Positions 38,520 through 62,240 of a DNA stretch of 64,000 nt are shown in pieces. Each line of letters begins with the position of its first letter. The stretch's first letter is position 1. Below the pieces are notes generated by a model that saw nothing but the letters and a program-made list of their open reading frames with translations, ran no database searches and was not told the DNA's origin. Where the stretch lies: contig NC_087436.1 in assembly GCF_036321535.1 (NCBI RefSeq), positions 42,720,001 through 42,784,000 on the forward strand, read 5' to 3'. The position numbers and the translations under genes are program-made. This DNA is from Camelus dromedarius. Its lineage: Eukaryota.

Positions 38520-38584
38520 ATGGCTTCGACTGCAACCTGCACCAGGTTCACGGACGAGTATCAGCTTTTCGAGGAGCTCGGAAA
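38520..38584 (+). CDS. CAMK2D: CaMKII delta coding exon 1 ([21 protein letters not shown] + AA of Lys codon, phase 2)
   Basis: ATG at 38520 in strong Kozak context (AGGATGG). Translation matches the CaMKII N-terminus; [15 protein letters not shown] is diagnostic of delta. Ends at donor AA|GTAAGC. 65 nt. Confidence 0.98.
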
Positions 38585-40192: not shown

Positions 40193-40287
40193 GGGGGCAT
40201 TCTCTGTGGTGAGAAGATGTATGAAAATCCCTACTGGACAAGAATATGCTGCCAAAATTATCAACACCAAAAAGCTTTCTGCTAGGG
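40193..40287 (+). CDS. CAMK2D: CaMKII delta coding exon 2 ([32 protein letters not shown]): glycine-rich loop and catalytic Lys (AAK)
   Basis: Acceptor ttttcag| at 40191-40192, 95 nt, frame continuous with exon 1 (AA+G = Lys). [13 protein letters not shown] is delta-specific. Donor |GTGGGT at 40288. Confidence 0.98.
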
Positions 40288-42099: not shown

Positions 42100-42340
42100 A
42101 GAATGAGGTGAGGAAGAACGTGCTGGAACTAGATGCTCTGGATTTAAATTCTGATTCCCCTACCTATTAACTGTGTGATCTTGGGAAGTTTACATATTTT
42201 CCGTGAGCCTCAGTTTTCTTATCTGTAAAATGATTAATAACATAATCCTTCCTTTTATAGGGTTTTGTAACAGAGTGGGTTAGTATAGTAGAACAGCGCC
42301 TGCTATGTAATGTGCATTCAGTGAATATTAGCTGCAGTTA
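42100..42340 (+). mobile_element. MIR SINE
   Basis: ctgtgtgatcttgggaagtt..gagcctcagttttcttatctgtaaaatg..agaacagcgcctg. Confidence 0.85.
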
Positions 42341-42419: not shown

Positions 42420-42615
42420 TTTAGCTATGAGAACCCAATTTGAATCTTGGCTCTACTACTTTGTGTGTAAATTTGGTTCAGTCAATTACCTTTTCTTGAT
42501 CTCAGGTGGCTCCTTCAATAAAATGAGGGTAAAAAATCCCCGTAGGGTTTCATGGGTGGTTTTGAGTAGTCAGCGGATTTTGAGAATCACTTCTTAAATT
42601 GCAAAGTGCTGTGTC
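42420..42615 (+). mobile_element. MIR SINE relic
   Basis: tttgaatcttggctctactact..tgtgtaaatttgg..taaaatgaggg. Confidence 0.6.
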
Positions 42616-45600
42616 AATTTTACCTATTACGTCTCACCTGTAAAATATTATAGGACTTCTTCAAAATGTTCAATTTATTTTATATTGCCACACAAATTAG
42701 AGCTATTTATAGAATGTTTATACCTTTGAAAGTGTACGTTTGTTAAATCTATACTCATATTAAGCTACAAACTCTTAAAGGAAAAATACCATGCTTTCAC
42801 TTTTTCAGTATAACATTTTACAACATTGAGGACATAGGAGGGGCTCTGTACAGAGTGACTAGTTATCAGGTGTGGTTATTAGATGTTTGTAAAGGAATTA
42901 GATACCTAGTTCATTCCTAAGAACAAACAAATACTGGGTGTAAAGAAATCTGTAAAGTAGTGTATTGAGAAAACACGCTTAAAAATATGAATTCTTTCAA
43001 AACACTCCCTTCTCAGAATATAATGATCCTAAAAAAACTTCTTTTGCAGAAAAAAATTTAAAATAATATATATAAAGGGAATTGTAGAATGAAATGCAAA
43101 ATAGAATTTTTCCCCCCTAAGGTAATGATTTTTTTTTGGTTGCAAATGGCAGTTTTTGTGGAACATGTAATTTTTTGTACAGATTTTTGTTTGTATTATT
43201 TGAAATATCATGCCTTTGTAAATCCAAGCTTTAAGCTTACTTATTTTGAAGTCTAAGCAGGTCCTGCAACTCAAAGTAATATTCTTTAAATGTAACATTA
43301 CAGGTGAAAAAGAAAGGCCATTGTCAATAAATCTAAGACCATGAGGGAATTGCCAAAAATTTGGCTATATTCCTGCATAAATTTGCACATCCAACTATAC
43401 TGTCACCCAGTTTTTCTGTGCCTAGGTTTTAATGGATTTCCAGCAGACAGTTTCAGTTGCATTTCCTCTCAGCTGTTAGTCACACACACCATATTTGGGA
43501 GACTCAGTCTGTTGAAGAATTTCTTCTGCGTTAGCACGTGCATGCAAAGGGCATTCATTACAGGATACTGATCAGATAGATAAATACATTCATGTAATGT
43601 AGCTTGTTTTTAAAGTAAAAAATAGCGTAGAAATGTTTCAGGCATCTGATAGGTTACATGTAATTTCTGTCTCTTAAACATTTTTTTGGTCAGCTAGGAA
43701 TAGAATGCTTAGTAAATGGTGGATAGTGATAATAGGATTTCCTCATATTAAATTGAGAATTAGAAATTATATCATTTTGATCAATTAGGTTAGCACTTAA
43801 CAAGTGCTAATTTGCCCTGCTGTTTTGATATTTTGTCTACTTTGACATTTTTATAACTGTAAGGTATTGTCAGATTATGTAAAGTCCATGAAGGGCTGTG
43901 ATTGCAGTTGAGAATCCAGTCAACTCCTGGTTCTGATGGCAGATGTCTTCAGAAGCTGTACATGTGTTTTATTTTGCATTTTAAAGCCTCCCTGTGGTAA
44001 AAGATTTTTTTATGGTACTAATGACTTCTTGGTGTTCATCTCCCAGTGTATTTTTTGATAATTAGAAACCACTTCTTATTACATAGAGTCGGTGATGTGC
44101 CACAAGTCATTTTTTTGTAACATATAATAAATTACAGTAGAAGCTTGAAATAATATATGTTATTATAATTATATTTTACCTCTGTTGCTTAAGTTATGAA
44201 GGGGTTTCATTTTACATTCTGTAAAACTTCAGATACAGCAGTTAAATGATTTTGGCCATCTTTGATATTGCTAGTTTTGTTAACTCCTAAATTGATGGTA
44301 TTACCAGAACATGAGTTAGGACTTTATAAGACTATTTGACCATGAACACAAAGTTAGGTCTTAGCTATGAAATCTGAATATTGCATTTATATCCCTAAGT
44401 AGTCTTTGTTTTAATAGGGATGTCAGTAACTCTTGTTACATTTTTTTTTTTTTTCCTTTTTTGGCGTCCAGACAGCCAAGAAATTACTGTAATTTGTCAG
44501 CCTCATGGTCACTTGTCTTGAATTGGAAGTAGAACTGAGACGATATAGGTGAATCAACTTGTTCTGATTACACATTATTGATTTGGCAATATGGAACTAA
44601 TTGGGCAAATAGTATTAACTTTTGCAAGTTTCTCGGCTCAAACAATACTTTCAGAAAAATTAGTAAATCATTTTATTTTTGTATTTGGAATCTCTACAAC
44701 TCTTCAATTTTTGAGACCCAAAGTGGTATATCATCCTTATCCTTTAGTGTCCTTTAGTTATGTTTAGTTATATTTACATAGGCTTTAGTATTAGACATTT
44801 ATTTTCCTCTTTTGATGAATAAAATTATTTCATTCAAAAGTAGAAGATTAAATATATATATATCTGTCTGTCTATCTATCTACATTTCCAGGAAATAATA
44901 AAAACACTTTCAAAATTCTAGCATCATTAAATAAGGAAAACTTAAACAATGTGGTTCTTTAAGAATTTAAGAATTCGTAAAGAATGTGGTACCTTTGTCA
45001 GGTACTTCACTGTGGTGTTAAGCAGTATCACTTCTACCTGACTGATCATTCAGTAGGAATTGAACACCCTGAGAACCTTGATCGTCTATACAATATTAAT
45101 CTATACTTTATATTTTCATTGAAATATTAAATCAACTCAGTGTAAAAATTTTGTTTTTATGAATTTTTTCAATTGTAATAATCATGAATTAATATTAAAC
45201 ATATACTAGGATTTTCTTAGGCACTTAACTTCTTTTGTTAACTCGAATTTTAATTAAATTTTAAGTCTTTTCCTTGGGCTGATACTGAGGCAGGCCAACT
45301 CCTAGTGTCTCTAGGGCTAGGCTGATATTTTTGTTGACATCTGACCCTCCTCACTTATTAGGGTATAGTATGTACAGTGTTTTTTATGAATTATTGGCAG
45401 TTAGTTAATGCTTGTTTACATGGAAGGCTAGGTTAAAGCTTTTACGTTATATTAGCTTCATTTAGTAAACTTTACTGTGAGATATTAAATGGAATCTTAG
45501 CAAAATATTTTTACTCTAAAATATACCTTTATACTTCATGTGTCATGCTACTTTATACATTACTAAGCACATTCACAAAGGTGACCTCATTTTATGTTTC

Positions 45601-50300: not shown

Positions 50301-51615
50301 TTGTACACTAACAAGTATGCTAGTGAAACTGAATTTTGGGGAGCATAATTCTACATTTCAATTTCAATTTAACAAAAGAACGGTTACTAACCTTATTTCA
50401 CACCCTCTGCTAAGTGCTGGATAAACAAAAGTACAAAGATAAGGTCCTTCATTTCAAGGTGAAATGGATATGGAGTCAAGTATATTACCAGAGAGACTGA
50501 TGAGTGTCACAATGGAAGAGTTTACTCATTCTGGGTATAAGGAGGTAACTGTTGGATTGCTGAAAGTTTAGGGAAGACTTACTGGAAGAGCTGATGTCTG
50601 AACTGGGTTTTGAAAATAACCACTTTTGAATTTAAAGATGGATAGAAAAGATGTAATTTAATAGGATATTATTTTTTAAAAAATCATGAGAAGCAAGGAA
50701 ATCAGAAAAAGTCAATAAAGAGAGAACTGAAAAGTAGGTAAATACTTTTTAATATATTTTAAGATAAATACTTTTTAAGATGATCAATTTACTGGGTATA
50801 AAGTTTCATGAAAGCATGCAAAAACTGATGGAAAGAGATGGAAATTTTTTCTTTCAGTGAATCATTAAGTGTAGCAAGATCTGTTGGAAGGTATTAAATA
50901 AGGTGGGTTGAGGGGATTTTACAACTCTGAGTCATAAGGGATAAACAGCTGATAAGAGAGGAATAACAGCTTCTTATCTCTTATCTCACATTTTGTTTTA
51001 TTTAGCTTTGGGGCAGTACAAAAAAAATCGAGTGACTAAGTGAAAGATAAAAGGACAGAAGGATTAATTAGAGAGTTCTTTAAAAAAAAACCCGATATTT
51101 AAAGTGCCCTAGGGAATTACGTTTGATTTATAACAAAGAAAACTACATAGTCTCTGCAGTTGTGATTTAAGATTAATGACTGTTATAAAAAAAAGTTTGT
51201 AGGTTTTGGTTTAAAACCAAAAGATGTCTAAAAATGGTATCGACATTATTCATTGCCTGAATTCCTAGTGTCTAGAATAGTGCCTGGCACCTTTCAGATA
51301 TTTATTGAATAAGTGAATGAATAAATGACTCTCAAACTACATCATATATGATAAATATTTAGGGACCCAGAACTCTTAGCAGTAAGATTTGTATACACTA
51401 TACTATTTTATGAAAAGTGCGAAGTTAGCAGGTAAATTCTGTGATGTATGTAATTTAGCACGTTTTGCTTGTAATTTAGCATAAGCTCTTGATTGGAAAA
51501 TAGTCATTTATTCCTTTCACTTAAATAATGGAAAAGTCTCTCATTCCCTTAGAAGACAACTTCAATTTAAATATTTAGCTCCCTACCTAGGCTTAACCAT
51601 ACAGCATTCCACCTG

Positions 51616-51630
51616 CCCCCCCCCCCCCCC
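51616..51630. repeat. C15 homopolymer
   Basis: Direct read. Confidence 0.95.
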
Positions 51631-52664
51631 GTTTTAAAGGGATCTTAGCATCTATAGAATTTTGTTATTTGTAAGGTCCCACCAGTTTTATTAGTGTTAT
51701 AACTTGTTTAAAGGGGGAAGTATTGTTTTACTCAATGTATATACATAATTTATAGTAGATTTTTTTGGTGTCAAGGAAGGGCTTTGTTTATACAGGAGAA
51801 GGCCTCCTATTGACTTCAAAAGTAATGACTCAAGTTTGGTATAGTTAGTAGGGTGGGAAAAATCCTAATTCCAGATTGCAAGCAGAATTTCAGGGTCAAA
51901 GTCTACTCCTGTTACCTGAGTGTAGAGCTCCTGATTTCAGTCCAGTTTTCATTCTAGTAGAGTTGGAGAAGGGAAACAAAAAATGGTGTCAGAGAACTAT
52001 TTGTCTCCTGTAAATTGGATTGAGGCCTACTTTCACTAATATTTATGTGCTTTGGAAATTATTTTTGGAAAAAAAATTCTTTGGATTGACCTTGCTTCCT
52101 GCTTCCTATGTATTTTACGGTCAGGAAAGGGGAAAACAAAATTTAATTGTTAACCTTAAGTCTATTTGATAGGAAAAAAATGAAATGTATATCATATCTT
52201 GTATTGACAGAACCAATTATTGATTATGTATAGCATTGTATCCTTTATTTAGTGCTAATAATCACGGTGTCTATATTCTGCCAGTGACTTGATGAAGAGA
52301 AGACCCTAAGGCATGCACAGGGATGGCTAAAGGATCACTGAAATCCTTTGTTTCAAAGTGAAAATGACTCTCTCAAGTGAAATTAGTATTTGTTGACCTT
52401 TTGCAAACTTTAAGAAACTATTTTAGATTTTATATTTTGGAATAATCTGAACCAAATAAATCCAAATTTAGAGATATCAGTATTAGAAATATACAATGAA
52501 TGCACACAGGGTCAGTTTTAAAAATAGCACTTAGCTTTGAGAGGGTGATTTTTCCTTCATCCTGCATGTAAATGCTTCATTCAGAACTCCTGTAGCAAGC
52601 TTTGGGGGAAGAGGCGGGAAGGGAAGTGCGAAATGAGTTTTGAAGAATCCTTGTAGCCCACACG

Positions 52665-52970
52665 AATGCTTATTTAACATCTTTCATTCAAGGATCTAGG
52701 ATGTTTCTTGACTGACTCCCACAGGGCTTGTGGACTGTGGGTGAAGGACCCTTGGATTCCGGTGCCCAGTGCTGTAAGGCCTGTCCTCCTGAGTGGCACG
52801 TTGCAGCTGTTTGTCACAGTGCACATCACATGCCCTCCCGGGCCAGGGAGTGCAGGAGGCAGCATTACCCAGCTGAAATAGCAGAGAGATTTAGGGAGCA
52901 CGGAGTAAATTACCTGGACTGGAGTTTGGCTAGGTCTGTGGCTCAGTAACCCCATTCCTATAAAAATGTT
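52665..52970 (-). mobile_element. AmnSINE1-like (Deu-domain SINE) relic, 3' half
   Basis: Minus strand reads cctagccaaactccagtccaggtaatt..cctaaatctctctgctatttcagctggg..tgtgcactgtgacaaacagctgcaacgtgccactcaggagg..gatccttgaatgaaagatgttaaataa. This is collinear with the AmnSINE1 consensus as I recall it. Confidence 0.72.
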
Positions 52971-53194
52971 CTATCTGTAAAACATTTTATATCCTGTTTT
53001 GTCCCAAAGAAAATAAAACCTACCTCACTTTCCATCTGCATGATTCTGTACATTTGGGAGCTTAACATAATAACGAGGATACAATAGCTTGTATCGACTG
53101 TTGATGATGAAGGAAAGTCAGGTTAGCACTGGGCATAAGGAACCCATTTGCATTGTGCCTGTCAAAAGCAGGCTATGGGAGGCATGAAAACAAT

Positions 53195-54910
53195 AAAATA
53201 TGCTCAGTTCCCAGAAAAAAAATTTACTGTTTGGCTTGGAGAATAGGAGATACACACAAATAATTATAGAGGAGATAAAGATGAGTAGCAGAAGAATGCA
53301 TTAAGATCATTCAGTGTACCAGGTAGTGGCATTTAGTTGTGGAAGCAAGAAAGGAAGCATTGAGGGAGTAGAAGTTAAGATGACTGGAAGGAAGGAAGAA
53401 GGGCAAGGACATAGAGGTGCAGAAAGTCATGTAATGTTTGGACAAAAGATGGAGAAACAGGAAAAAAAGCTTGAAAAGATGTAAAGGTCTTTGACTGACA
53501 GGTTGAGAATATTGTCTTACATATGGTGAAGACACATTAAAGAGGGCTTCTAAGACATTACTTGGCAACAGTGAATAAGCAGGGTGGATTGGCATTGAGC
53601 GTGAGATACTGAAATTCTGAAACTGTAGGACAGTAAAGGGAAAGGAGTGAGAACACAAGGATGCCTGGGGTTTCAAGGTTGAAATCATGGGGAAAATTGT
53701 GATTTTCATATAACAAATTGAGGAGTCAAAATCAAGAACTGATTTGGATGAAGGAAGATGATGAATTGACTTGTGTTTAAGGTACAAGCTATATATTCAG
53801 GTGGAAACATCTGAGAGACCATTGAAAATTGAGTGTGGTCCTTGAGAACGGGACTTGGGAAGTGGTGCCATGTACTGTATAGGTTAAGAGCATCTGCTCT
53901 GAAATCAGACTGGCAAGGTTCAAGACCTGTGTCTGCCACTTCCGAGTCCTTGTGATCTTGGATAAACTTCCTAACTTCTCCAAGCCATGGTTTTCTTATC
54001 GATAAAACTGCAGTAATCATTTTAGCTGCAATTTGTGACTTGTCTGCACAAAGATGATGGTAAAACCTGTACTAGTGGAAAAGATCACAAAGGAGAGAAA
54101 AGATAGACAGGAAAAAGAGCCCAGGACAGTGCTGTGGAGGGAAACCTGCATTTTGATGAATGAGAGGAGGAGATAGAACTATTTGAAGAGAAGCGAAAGG
54201 TATGTCAGAAAGGAATAATGCAGTGCTTTGAACTCTGAGGGAGAGAATTTTTGCGAAGGAGGGGATGGCAGGTGTGATGTTCAATGTTACAGAGAAATGG
54301 GAAGAAATGAAGACTGGGAAAAGGCCTTGGTTTTCCATATAGCAGAGTTTCAGTCATGTTAGGGAAGTGACCATGAGAATCAGGCTCATCTGTTAAGTCC
54401 ACATCATTGTAGCTGAGTGTACTGCATGAAGTAGAATGGTATATGATGAATACTTGCTAAATGAATAGAAGAAAAAACTTTCTTGGGATTAAAGAATAAA
54501 TGGAGATAACATGTAAAACCTTGCTGGTTTAATAAAATAGGAAAAGAGAGACGGACACAGTGCTAAGGAGTAATTTCAGGGATTAACCTGGTCAAGGGAA
54601 TTAACTTTGGTGATAAATAAAACTGAAGCTTATTTGACAGAAGAGGAAACAGGATTACTCAAGAATAGAAAGACTGATAATGTAAGGGAAGAGAGGAAAA
54701 ACTATGGGGCCAAGTGATGGAGACTGTTGGGTCTGAGTGGGAACAAGAGATTAGTCTGGGAAAAAATCTTCCTCACAGAGGACAGCAGGAGAGTGAGAAG
54801 ACAGCACGGTGCTGAGACATTTGGGATGGAGAATACAGTTACAGTTCAGCTGGGAAGAGAAATGGAAGCAGGATTGAGAGCTTGGAGAGAAGAGATTTGG
54901 GATGGTCTTT
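53195..54910 (-). mobile_element. Long degenerate L2 fragment with a nested MIR
   Basis: Purine-rich L2 antisense motifs: ggatgcctggggtttc, tcaggtggaaacatctg, gagcccaggacag, ttcaatgttacagag, gcagagtttcagt. Confidence 0.65.
53865..54020 (+). mobile_element. MIR SINE 5' part
   Basis: ggttaagagc..gctctgaaatcagactg..ggttcaagacct..tctgccactt..tgtgatcttggataaacttcctaacttctc. Confidence 0.82.
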
Positions 54911-56154: not shown

Positions 56155-57045
56155 ATCATTCATTCATTCATTCATTCACTCATTTATTGAACTATGAGCA
56201 GGTACGCTTGCAGATTCTAGAACTTGGTTGAGCGGCTACTATGGGTAGGCACAGTTCTAGATTCTAGAACTTGGTATAGGATGTGAGCAAACTTGGTATT
56301 TGAGAGGCTGGAAGAGTCATTTGGATGGGTAAGTGCAATGCAGTGAATAAAACAGGACTATAAGTTAAATAGTGACCTCAAGCAGGGTTACTTTGGATAG
56401 ACCTCTCTGAGGATGTTAACATTTGTGCTGAGACATTAATGATGAGAGGAAGCAAATCATGAGAAAATATGAGAGAAGAACATTCTGGGCCAAAAGACCA
56501 AGGTGACAATGAGCTTGCACAGGGATAGAAAGAAAGTCATCACATTTGGAGTGTAATTAGCCAAGAGGAGAGATGTACACAGCGATCTTGGGAGGTGGGC
56601 AGAGGACAGATTAGATAGAGCCTTACAGCCAAAGTTAAGGAATTTGGATCTTACTTTGAAAGCCGTGGTACGCTATATTGATGAAATGGAGCAGGGAAGT
56701 GATGTAACCAGATTTTGTCTTGAGAAAATCGCTCTGGCTGCCATGTGCAAAATAAATTGAAAGGATATGTGAGTGAAAACAAGACTAGGTTGAAGATTCT
56801 TGCAGTCTAAGGGAGATGTGAAGGTGGCAGTAGAGATAGTGAGAAGGATACCTTTTGGAAAAGTATAGGACTTGCTAATGGAAAGATTGTGAGGTGTGAA
56901 GGACAGTGAAGAGGCATGACTACTAGTTTTATAGCCAGATCAACTGTCCAATAATGGTGCTAATATTTGAGATGGACGATACTGGAGTAGAATTAGATTG
57001 GGATGGGAAACTGAGAGTTCAGGTTTCCATGTGTTAAACGTGAGA
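56155..57045 (-). mobile_element. L2 LINE 3' end with (TCAT)n tail
   Basis: (tcat)n-ttattga; acctctctgagga..acatttgtgctgagac; gagcagggaagtgat; gctctggctgccatgtg; gagttcaggttt..catgt. Confidence 0.85.
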
Positions 57046-57460
57046 TTCATCATCTGCCAAAGAAACCTCTTACCTATTAGCAGTTTTTCCTCATTCCCAC
57101 CTTTCCTTCTTCCCTTGCCCACTCCAGGCAACCACTAGTCTACTTTCTATCTCTATAGATTTGTTTATTTTAGACATTTTATAGAAGTATAATCATATAT
57201 TATGTAGTCTTTTGTGACTGGTTTCTCATTGTGCATAATATTTTCAAGATTCATTTATGTTGTAGCATGTTTTATTGCTGAATAATGTTCTGTTAGGTGG
57301 ATATACCACATTTTGTTTATCCATTCATCAGTGGATGGGTCTTTGGGTTTTTTTCCACTTTTTGGCTATTAGTATAAATAATGCTGCTATGAACATTTGT
57401 GTCCTAGCTTTTTGTATAAACCTGTATTTTTATCTATCTTGTGTATATACCTAGGAATGG
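57046..57460 (-). mobile_element. L1MB-type LINE 3' UTR fragment
   Basis: ccaggcaaccactagtctactttctatctctatagatttg, ggatataccacattttgtttatccattcatcag, aataatgctgctatgaacattt, atacctaggaatgg. Confidence 0.9.
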
Positions 57461-59811: not shown

Positions 59812-60281
59812 TTCTTTAACTGTGGTAAAATGTATATAACATAAAATCCACCATTGTAACCATTTTAAGTGTACAGTTAGGTCAGTGGCATTAAGTACAT
59901 TCACATTGTCATGCAACCATCACCACCATCCATCTCCAGCGTATTTTCATCTTCCCTAACTGAAATTCTATACCCATTAAATAATAGCTCTTCATTTTCC
60001 CCTCCCTCAGCTCCTGGCAACCATTCTGTCTTCTGTCTCTGAATCTGATTACTCTAGATACCTCATATAAGTGAACTCATTCCATATTTGTCCTTTTGTG
60101 ACTGGCTTATTATACTTAGCATGATGTCCTCAAGGTTCATCCATATTGTAGTGTGTGTCACAACTTCCTTCCTTTTTAAGGCTGAATGATACTCTGTTAT
60201 ATGTACATACCACATTTTGTGTATCCATTCATCTGTTGTTGGACACGTAGTTTACTTCCATTTTTTGGCAATTGTGAATAG
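59812..60281 (-). mobile_element. L1MB-type LINE 3' end (5'-truncated)
   Basis: tgtggtaaaat..taaccattttaagtgtacagtt, gtggcattaagtacattcacattg, tacctcatataagtg, tcctcaaggttcatccat, ttccttcctttttaaggctgaat. Confidence 0.92.
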
Positions 60282-61942
60282 TAGGGATTTTTAAGAGTTT
60301 ATCTAAAAAGCTATATATGATCATTAAGTTGAACATTCTAATTGGGTCAAATAAAGGAAGGAATACATATTATATATTTATAATTTTTATTTCTTTATTG
60401 TACATAGAAATGTGTGGGGTCATTTTTACCCTCAAATATTTTTTATTACTTTGTAAGCTGTTTACCTTGAATATTCTACTACGTGAATAGAAGTGTTGCA
60501 GTATATATCATTTATTTACCTGGAGGGGAAAATGGCATTCTTAATAATATGTATATTTGATATTATGATGGGTTTGCCAATTTTAAACTCTCATTTGCGT
60601 TTTGACTTTTGTAGTGTTTGATAATGTGATAATAAGTGAGGAGAAGCCAGAAGGATATTTTTGCCTTTCTTTTTAACCCTTAGCTTTTCAGTATATATAT
60701 TTTTCTTTAGCACTTGGCTTGGCTTTTGTAGTTACTTCACATTTGACTAGTTTTATCATATACATTTTAATAGGACCAAAGGGCCATAATGTTTGTTGTA
60801 TTTTCAAATCTAAAATATTGTTAAAATTTTTCAGTTTGTTGAATACCTCATTGCAGCTATATGGAGTATTGTTCATGCTCTAGACTTTTTGCAAGGTATC
60901 TGCAAACTTCATTAAGCTTTTTCAGGTACTAATTTAAATATTAAAGGAGAGTATATGCCATTGTATTACCTGTGGCTTCCTTTGTTTCACTTGTTTTAAA
61001 ACAAAAATGAAACAAACTTTGGTTATCTAGTTATTAACTTTTGCAGCGAATTGCCTTTCTAAATCAGTATCTTTTAAGTGCTAGGATATGTTGAAGCATG
61101 GTATGCACAGTGTTAGCTTTTGGGGTTAATCTAGATGAAGAGTTTAAGGTTGAATATGTTTCATTGTATACTTAATGTCTAATACTAGATAAAATGATAT
61201 TTAAAATATGTCAGCATTGAAGAATATCATCTAAAAAGCCTTTAGAATAAGTTGGATGACTTGGAAGATCTGATTTTATGTGCATATTTCAAAGTAAAAT
61301 TACAATTATGAGTGGGAAAGAAAACCTTTTTGAAAAGCTCTTTGCTTGAGGTCTGTTTTGTTTAATTTTTGTTTTTGTATTTTTTAAAGGATTTGTTTGA
61401 CCAAGTGATCAGATCATAGCTGTATTGCTTTAAAGTGATAGATTTGTTATTCAAAGATGGCGGTAAACTCAAATACTCTCTTAATATAACTAGGGGGATG
61501 TTAATGGGTGAAATTGTTTTTATTTTAGTTGTGAATCAGGAAGACTTCTAATTGAGTATGTTTTAGACGAGGAGATGCTTCTTTCCAAATAGTCTCCATT
61601 TATATGTTCTTGAGTAGTTAAATAAAGTTGATGGAGTCTTTTAAAATTTGTCTGCTCTAACAGTGCAAAAGGATACTTCTCATTTTAATTTTGATATTCA
61701 TAATTGTAGCTATTTTGAAGAAAATTATGGGAACTCACGTTCTGTTGCCATTTGCAGAGGTGATAGTGCTAATGTAGTTAGTTATATGAATATGCTTTCT
61801 TTAATGTCATTTGGTTTTGTCTACTTGAGTCTCCCTTTTGTTTTTCCGTTCTTTCAACTGTTTTATTTTCAATTTAAAAATTTGTCAGTTACCTTATTGT
61901 TTCTTATAAAATTAATGTTTATTAAGTTACTATAGCTATATT

Positions 61943-62240
61943 TTAACCTTTCTGAGCTTCAGTTCTTCGTTATTAGAACAGGAATAATGGAGGAGGTTAT
62001 AACTCAGTGGTAGAGTGCATGCCTAGCATGCACAGGTCCTGGTGAAGTTCAATCCCCAGTACTGCCATCAAAATAAACAAACAAACAAACAAACCTGATT
62101 ACCTCCCCCAACCAAAAAAAAAAAAAAAAACCCCAAACCCAGGAATAATAACCCTTGTTCTGTGTTGTCTCTTAGGGTTATTGTGAAAGTCAGATACTTG
62201 AATATGAAAGCACTTGGCAAACTGGTAAAGCACCATACAC
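61943..62240 (+). mobile_element. MIR split by the SINE at 61989-62139
   Basis: ttaacctttctgagcttcagtt..ggaataat on the left; tagggttattgtgaa..tatgaaagcacttggcaaactg..taaagcac on the right. Confidence 0.75.
61989..62139 (+). mobile_element. tRNA-derived SINE, Vic-1-like (camelid), inserted in a MIR
   Basis: A-box-like TAACTCAGTGG, B-box GTTCAATCC, gtgcatgcctagcatgcac, tail aaacctgattacctccccc + A-run; TSD CAGGAATAAT at 61979-61988 and 62140-62149. Confidence 0.88.

Follow-up and report, generated by a model that had tools for sequence, protein, structure and literature searches.

Intron 2 of the dromedary CAMK2D gene probably harbors a headless relic of the Deu-SINE AmnSINE1, a block of about 300 nt lying antisense to its host gene. 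This assignment draws on a published list of human genes that contain AmnSINE1, on a collinear match in a metagenome locus (L025) and on apparent agreement by eye with the family consensus. Whether the block is under regulatory constraint appears, on family-wide figures, to be a roughly even call. The analysis covered a 64,000-nt stretch of Camelus dromedarius DNA (hereafter the window), and the coordinates of its relevant features are collected in Table 1.

On its plus strand the window carries the 5′ portion of CAMK2D, a very large gene (about 300 kb) whose product, CaMKII-delta, is the CaMKII isoform that predominates in the heart. The exon 2 peptide (40194-40286) shows 31/31 residues identical with CaMKII delta (54.5 bits); its scores for alpha, beta and gamma are lower, at 38.9-45 bits. 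A motif search for exon 3 found no match up to 64000, the end of the window, which places the block within intron 2, 14,145 nt (14.1 kb) from the ATG. With the delta-identical exon 2 peptide and no exon 3 by 64000, the position that an earlier note on this DNA gave for the block, about 14 kb into CAMK2D and inside intron 2, holds. The N-terminus encoded at 38520-38534 reads MASTA, as against MASTT in the solved delta chain of human type.

Table 1. Features of the window in and around the block (positions counted from the first nucleotide of the window)
Feature	Position	Strand	Remark
CpG island	about 37-39 kb		contains CAMK2D coding exon 1
CAMK2D coding exon 1, CDS	38520-38584	+	GT donor
CAMK2D exon 2	40193-40287	+	AG acceptor and GT donor, read off the sequence
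MEF2-type A/T-rich decamer TTAAAAATAG	52518-52527	+	outside the relic
Probable 5′-truncated AmnSINE1 (Deu-SINE) relic, 3′ part of Deu and tail	52665-52970	-	antisense to CAMK2D; ends approximate, from the earlier note
CAGCTG E-box	52804-52809		named in the earlier note
Second CAGCTG E-box	52870-52875		missed in the earlier note
Stretch collinear with L025: 33-nt motif and about 29 nt beyond	52892-52953	-	score 11

The GC content of the block is 0.507, where sliding windows over 40-64 kb average 0.338, and over 52665-52950 it rises to 0.521, a value reached by 0/80 equal tiles elsewhere in intron 2. The description of a GC-richer block of some 300 nt in an AT-rich intron is thus borne out, the block ranking first of 81 tiles. 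An L2-like stretch near 54.7 kb attains a GC content of up to 0.50, so the excess is modest and puts the block at the top of the range, not outside it. The block is present as a single copy within the 64-kb window, and none of the 12 tandem-repeat entries for the window falls inside it. Its CpG observed/expected ratio of 0.21 is equaled or exceeded by 20/80 tiles, an ordinary value that gives no sign of a germline-unmethylated element.

AmnSINE1 is said to have been described by Nishihara et al. in 2006 as a 570-bp 5S-Deu-L2 SINE. Read on its minus strand, the block appears by eye to agree, in the same order, with AmnSINE1 over the 3′ part of Deu and the tail; this comparison is the same kind of evidence as that of the earlier note and is not independent of it. 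Compared with the published structure of the family (PMC3234267), the block resembles AmnSINE1 as a single antisense relic of about 300 nt and differs from it in lacking a head derived from 5S or tRNA. Rfam matched neither 5S nor tRNA in 51500-54500, up to E 10, and ARAGORN found 0 tRNA genes in the window. Published exapted copies are also headless, so a headless block may still be an AmnSINE1 relic; the missing head is compatible with such an origin, and membership of the family is probable, not demonstrated. Taking the human gene list, L025 and the by-eye agreement together, the family named in the earlier note is probably the right one, and the 5S/tRNA head is the part of the element that did not turn up.

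Human CAMK2D stands in row 428 of Table S1 of PMC12015672, which lists 1,416 AmnSINE1-containing loci from the UCSC Table Browser at gene level, without coordinates. Given this and the size of the gene, the listed human copy may sit elsewhere in CAMK2D; the block is most likely its orthologue. The same list places human CAMK2B in row 666, and a search of it for CAMK2A and CAMK2G found no row for either (PMC12015672). That CAMK2D is entered under AmnSINE1 specifically (PMC12015672) argues against an origin in a sister Deu-domain family (AmnSINE2, DeuSINE or LmeSINE1-like) whose distinguishing head is missing. Such a sister would account for the lack of a 5S or tRNA head at the block, since a 330-bp Deu domain is common to vertebrate DeuSINEs (PMC4824008), several of which are annotated in mammals (PMC6904449); we regard it as very unlikely.

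A degenerate 33-nt motif taken from the block was used as the query for scans of metagenomes, which returned 35 loci. Of these, L025 extended best, matching the block for about 29 nt more than the motif itself (score 11; the runner-up scored 6); 3/300 random stretches of L025 scored as well, and L025 was itself picked as the best of 35. It is unannotated, contains no long reading frame and is the only one of the 35 with vertebrate-type CpG depletion (observed/expected ratio 0.11; the next value among all loci compared was 0.63). Comparison of the block with L025 by blastn gave no match at E<0.5, and no 5S head was found in L025. The collinearity may be read as weak support for the AmnSINE1 family.

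Around L025:790-860 the contig resembles vertebrate host DNA and bears a short Deu-like relic. A second short match, between 52862-52876 (minus strand) and L025:829-843, lies around the second CAGCTG of the block and suggests that the relic contains an internal near-repeat. The other 34 metagenome loci yielded no useful extension, and most of them lie in long bacterial reading frames. Motif matches in three viral-contig scans (1, 0 and 1 loci) and in GTDB genomes (6 loci) were rejected as chance, none extending past the motif, and a blastn search of plasmid sequences gave no match.

The human gene list and L025 both point to AmnSINE1 and thereby away from the proposal that the block is no Deu-SINE at all, being instead a chance GC-rich patch or another old repeat, for example the DNA transposon MER6. 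Like the presumed relic, MER6 is an old mammalian repeat bearing a module of fish-SINE type; unlike it, MER6 has a V domain in place of Deu, together with 24-bp terminal inverted repeats, and its reported hosts among 85 genomes are primates, bats and eulipotyphlans (PMC6887750). No long arms flank the block among the 25 longest of the 59 inverted-repeat pairs in 51500-54500. An origin outside the Deu-SINEs is quite unlikely.

A role of the block as RNA, whether as a structured intronic element, a small RNA or a cryptic exon, would find some encouragement in the abundant AmnSINE1 reads of ribodepleted human cortex RNA (PMC12015672) and in a 60-nt window at 52850-52791 (minus strand) that folds at z = -3.1. 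Against it, the other 11/12 windows range from z = -0.3 to +1.4, the windows overlapping the stable one do not share its low value, and the block as a whole gives z = -0.31 on the minus and +0.47 on the plus strand; the value of -3.1 is probably chance among 12 windows. In the region of the putative L2-related 3′ tail, the folding windows over 52671-52750 were no more stable than expected (z = -0.21 and +0.34). Rfam recognized no family in 51500-54500, where its only output was a pair of chance matches with E about 7, and the longest stop-free frame in the block measures 91 codons. A function of this kind is extremely improbable.

Other repeats of various ages surround the block. Three purine-rich, strongly G-skewed stretches occupy 53200-53850, 54050-54450 and 56200-57050 and by eye resemble L2 relics; one such L2-like stretch lies just past the inferred 5′ side of the relic, where a head would be. 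By eye, 42130-42330, 42420-42640 and 53860-54010 are MIR-like relics. At 61990-62130 lies a young SINE of tRNA origin that ends in an A-rich stretch and looks like the camelid Vic-1 family; it has apparently been inserted in an older MIR-like relic at about 61940-62240. The lone long self-match in the window pairs 57103-57370 with 59991-60273 (66% identity over 292 columns), and the two look like old L1 3′ fragments.

The earlier note had argued that an element of this age, if still recognizable, is likely to be under purifying selection. The human genome contains about 1,500 AmnSINE1 copies (PMC12015672), of which 626 overlap conserved elements (PMC5065162). At this base rate of ~40%, recognizability does not imply selection, and the argument was too strong. 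The remaining 60% or so, outside the 626, are consistent with an AmnSINE1 relic that evolves neutrally or nearly so, is functionless and has stayed recognizable through a slow lineage and region. The ordinary CpG content of the block, its named motifs, which occur at chance level, and the finding that >95% of ancient transposable-element insertions common to human and mouse evolve neutrally (PMC3649676) favor this reading as well. It fits less well with the unusual enrichment of AmnSINE1 for constraint and open chromatin, and with a block that is long (about 300 nt) and has the highest GC content of intron 2. Neutral decay is a possible explanation, and one to be taken seriously.

Family-wide data supply the case for a regulatory AmnSINE1 relic. 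Across 41 cell types, nearly half of AmnSINE1 copies coincide with open chromatin (PMC3757057). Enrichment of the family is also reported in ectodermal enhancer states and in fetal H3K27ac (PMC6904449), and RELA binding is enriched on it in both human and cow (PMC12212084). Neocortex p300 peaks overlap only 16 AmnSINE1 instances, and the main text of that study makes no mention of Camk2d (PMC3757057). S3 Table of PMC5065162 has two chr4 loci, neither of them near CAMK2D; the table covers 54/626 conserved copies, so the absence of CAMK2D from it says little. Judged from these base rates, that the block is a constrained regulatory AmnSINE1 relic has a little short of an even chance.

The E-box CAGCTG and the MEF2-type decamer TTAAAAATAG to which the earlier note had drawn attention are both present in the sequence (Table 1). 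As support for an enhancer active in heart or muscle they do not stand out. The window contains 29 matches to YTAWWWWTAR, and a MEF2-type decamer lies within 150 nt in 465/2320 random placements of the block (20%); similarly, of 2000 dinucleotide shuffles, 21% contain at least one CAGCTG. Both the MEF2 site and a lone E-box are thus no more than chance would give. Two copies of CAGCTG, as found in the block, occurred in 1.85% of 2000 shuffles and in 0/80 tiles, a comparison made post hoc. We assume that the CAGCTG at 52804 belongs to the ancestral AmnSINE1 consensus, in which case it would have been inherited, not gained. That the block is a conserved enhancer of CAMK2D, active in heart, muscle or neurons by way of its two CAGCTG sites, is in our estimate rather unlikely.

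Under the preferred assignment, the relic would be an old insertion, antisense in CAMK2D intron 2, that was copied by its partner LINE. An L2-type partner is suggested by the family label 5S-Deu-L2 (PMC5065162). With the Pol III head (5S- or tRNA-derived) absent, the element would be neither transcribed nor mobile as a SINE. Its function, if it has one, would be at the DNA level, where it may serve as a modestly constrained platform for transcription factors, an intronic enhancer module. The two CAGCTG sites could be bound by bHLH factors, and the target would be either a neighboring gene or the promoter of CAMK2D at a distance of 14 kb.

Published exapted copies of AmnSINE1 are partial as well. 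AS021, near Satb2, corresponds to consensus 257-570, the 3′ half (PMC3234267); AS3_9, near Wnt5a, corresponds to consensus 391-501 with an identity of 71.4% (PMC5065162); and AS071, near Fgf8, measures 204 bp (PMC3427154). All three measure 110-310 bp, and the span of AS021 is close to the part that we infer for the block. The three differ from it in their conservation among mammals and in having been assayed in transgenic mice; the motifs named for the block are at chance level.

Intron 2 also contains an antisense transcript in the mouse, the lncRNA Gm15551, which is like the block in intron and orientation. The exon 1 deleted in its knockout presumably lies about 70 kb into the Camk2d gene, and we rejected Gm15551 as the element of the block because it is probably another site. 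The deleted exon 1 spans 3:126462197-126463309, and Gm15551 carries promoter and enhancer marks, with binding of PPARG and PRDM16 in fat (PMC9149892). Its expression is uncorrelated with that of Camk2d, and its knockout is without phenotype (PMC9149892).

The block is probably an ordinary, already annotated copy of the AmnSINE1 family. The presence of AmnSINE1 in human CAMK2D has been published at gene level (PMC12015672). Our search of the literature, which extended to few subscription journals, found no paper with both CAMK2D and AmnSINE1 in its main text and no study of the site or function of the block.

To the about 1,500 known copies of the family the block adds one probable orthologue. 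Its weight would be greater if it were a working enhancer, as the cis-regulation of CAMK2D is thinly described in the literature found, and only three animal-tested AmnSINE1 enhancers were found there. Such an enhancer would be the first documented AmnSINE1 role on a calcium-signaling disease gene outside embryonic patterning and, together with CAMK2B, would amount to two independent co-options in CaMKII paralogues.
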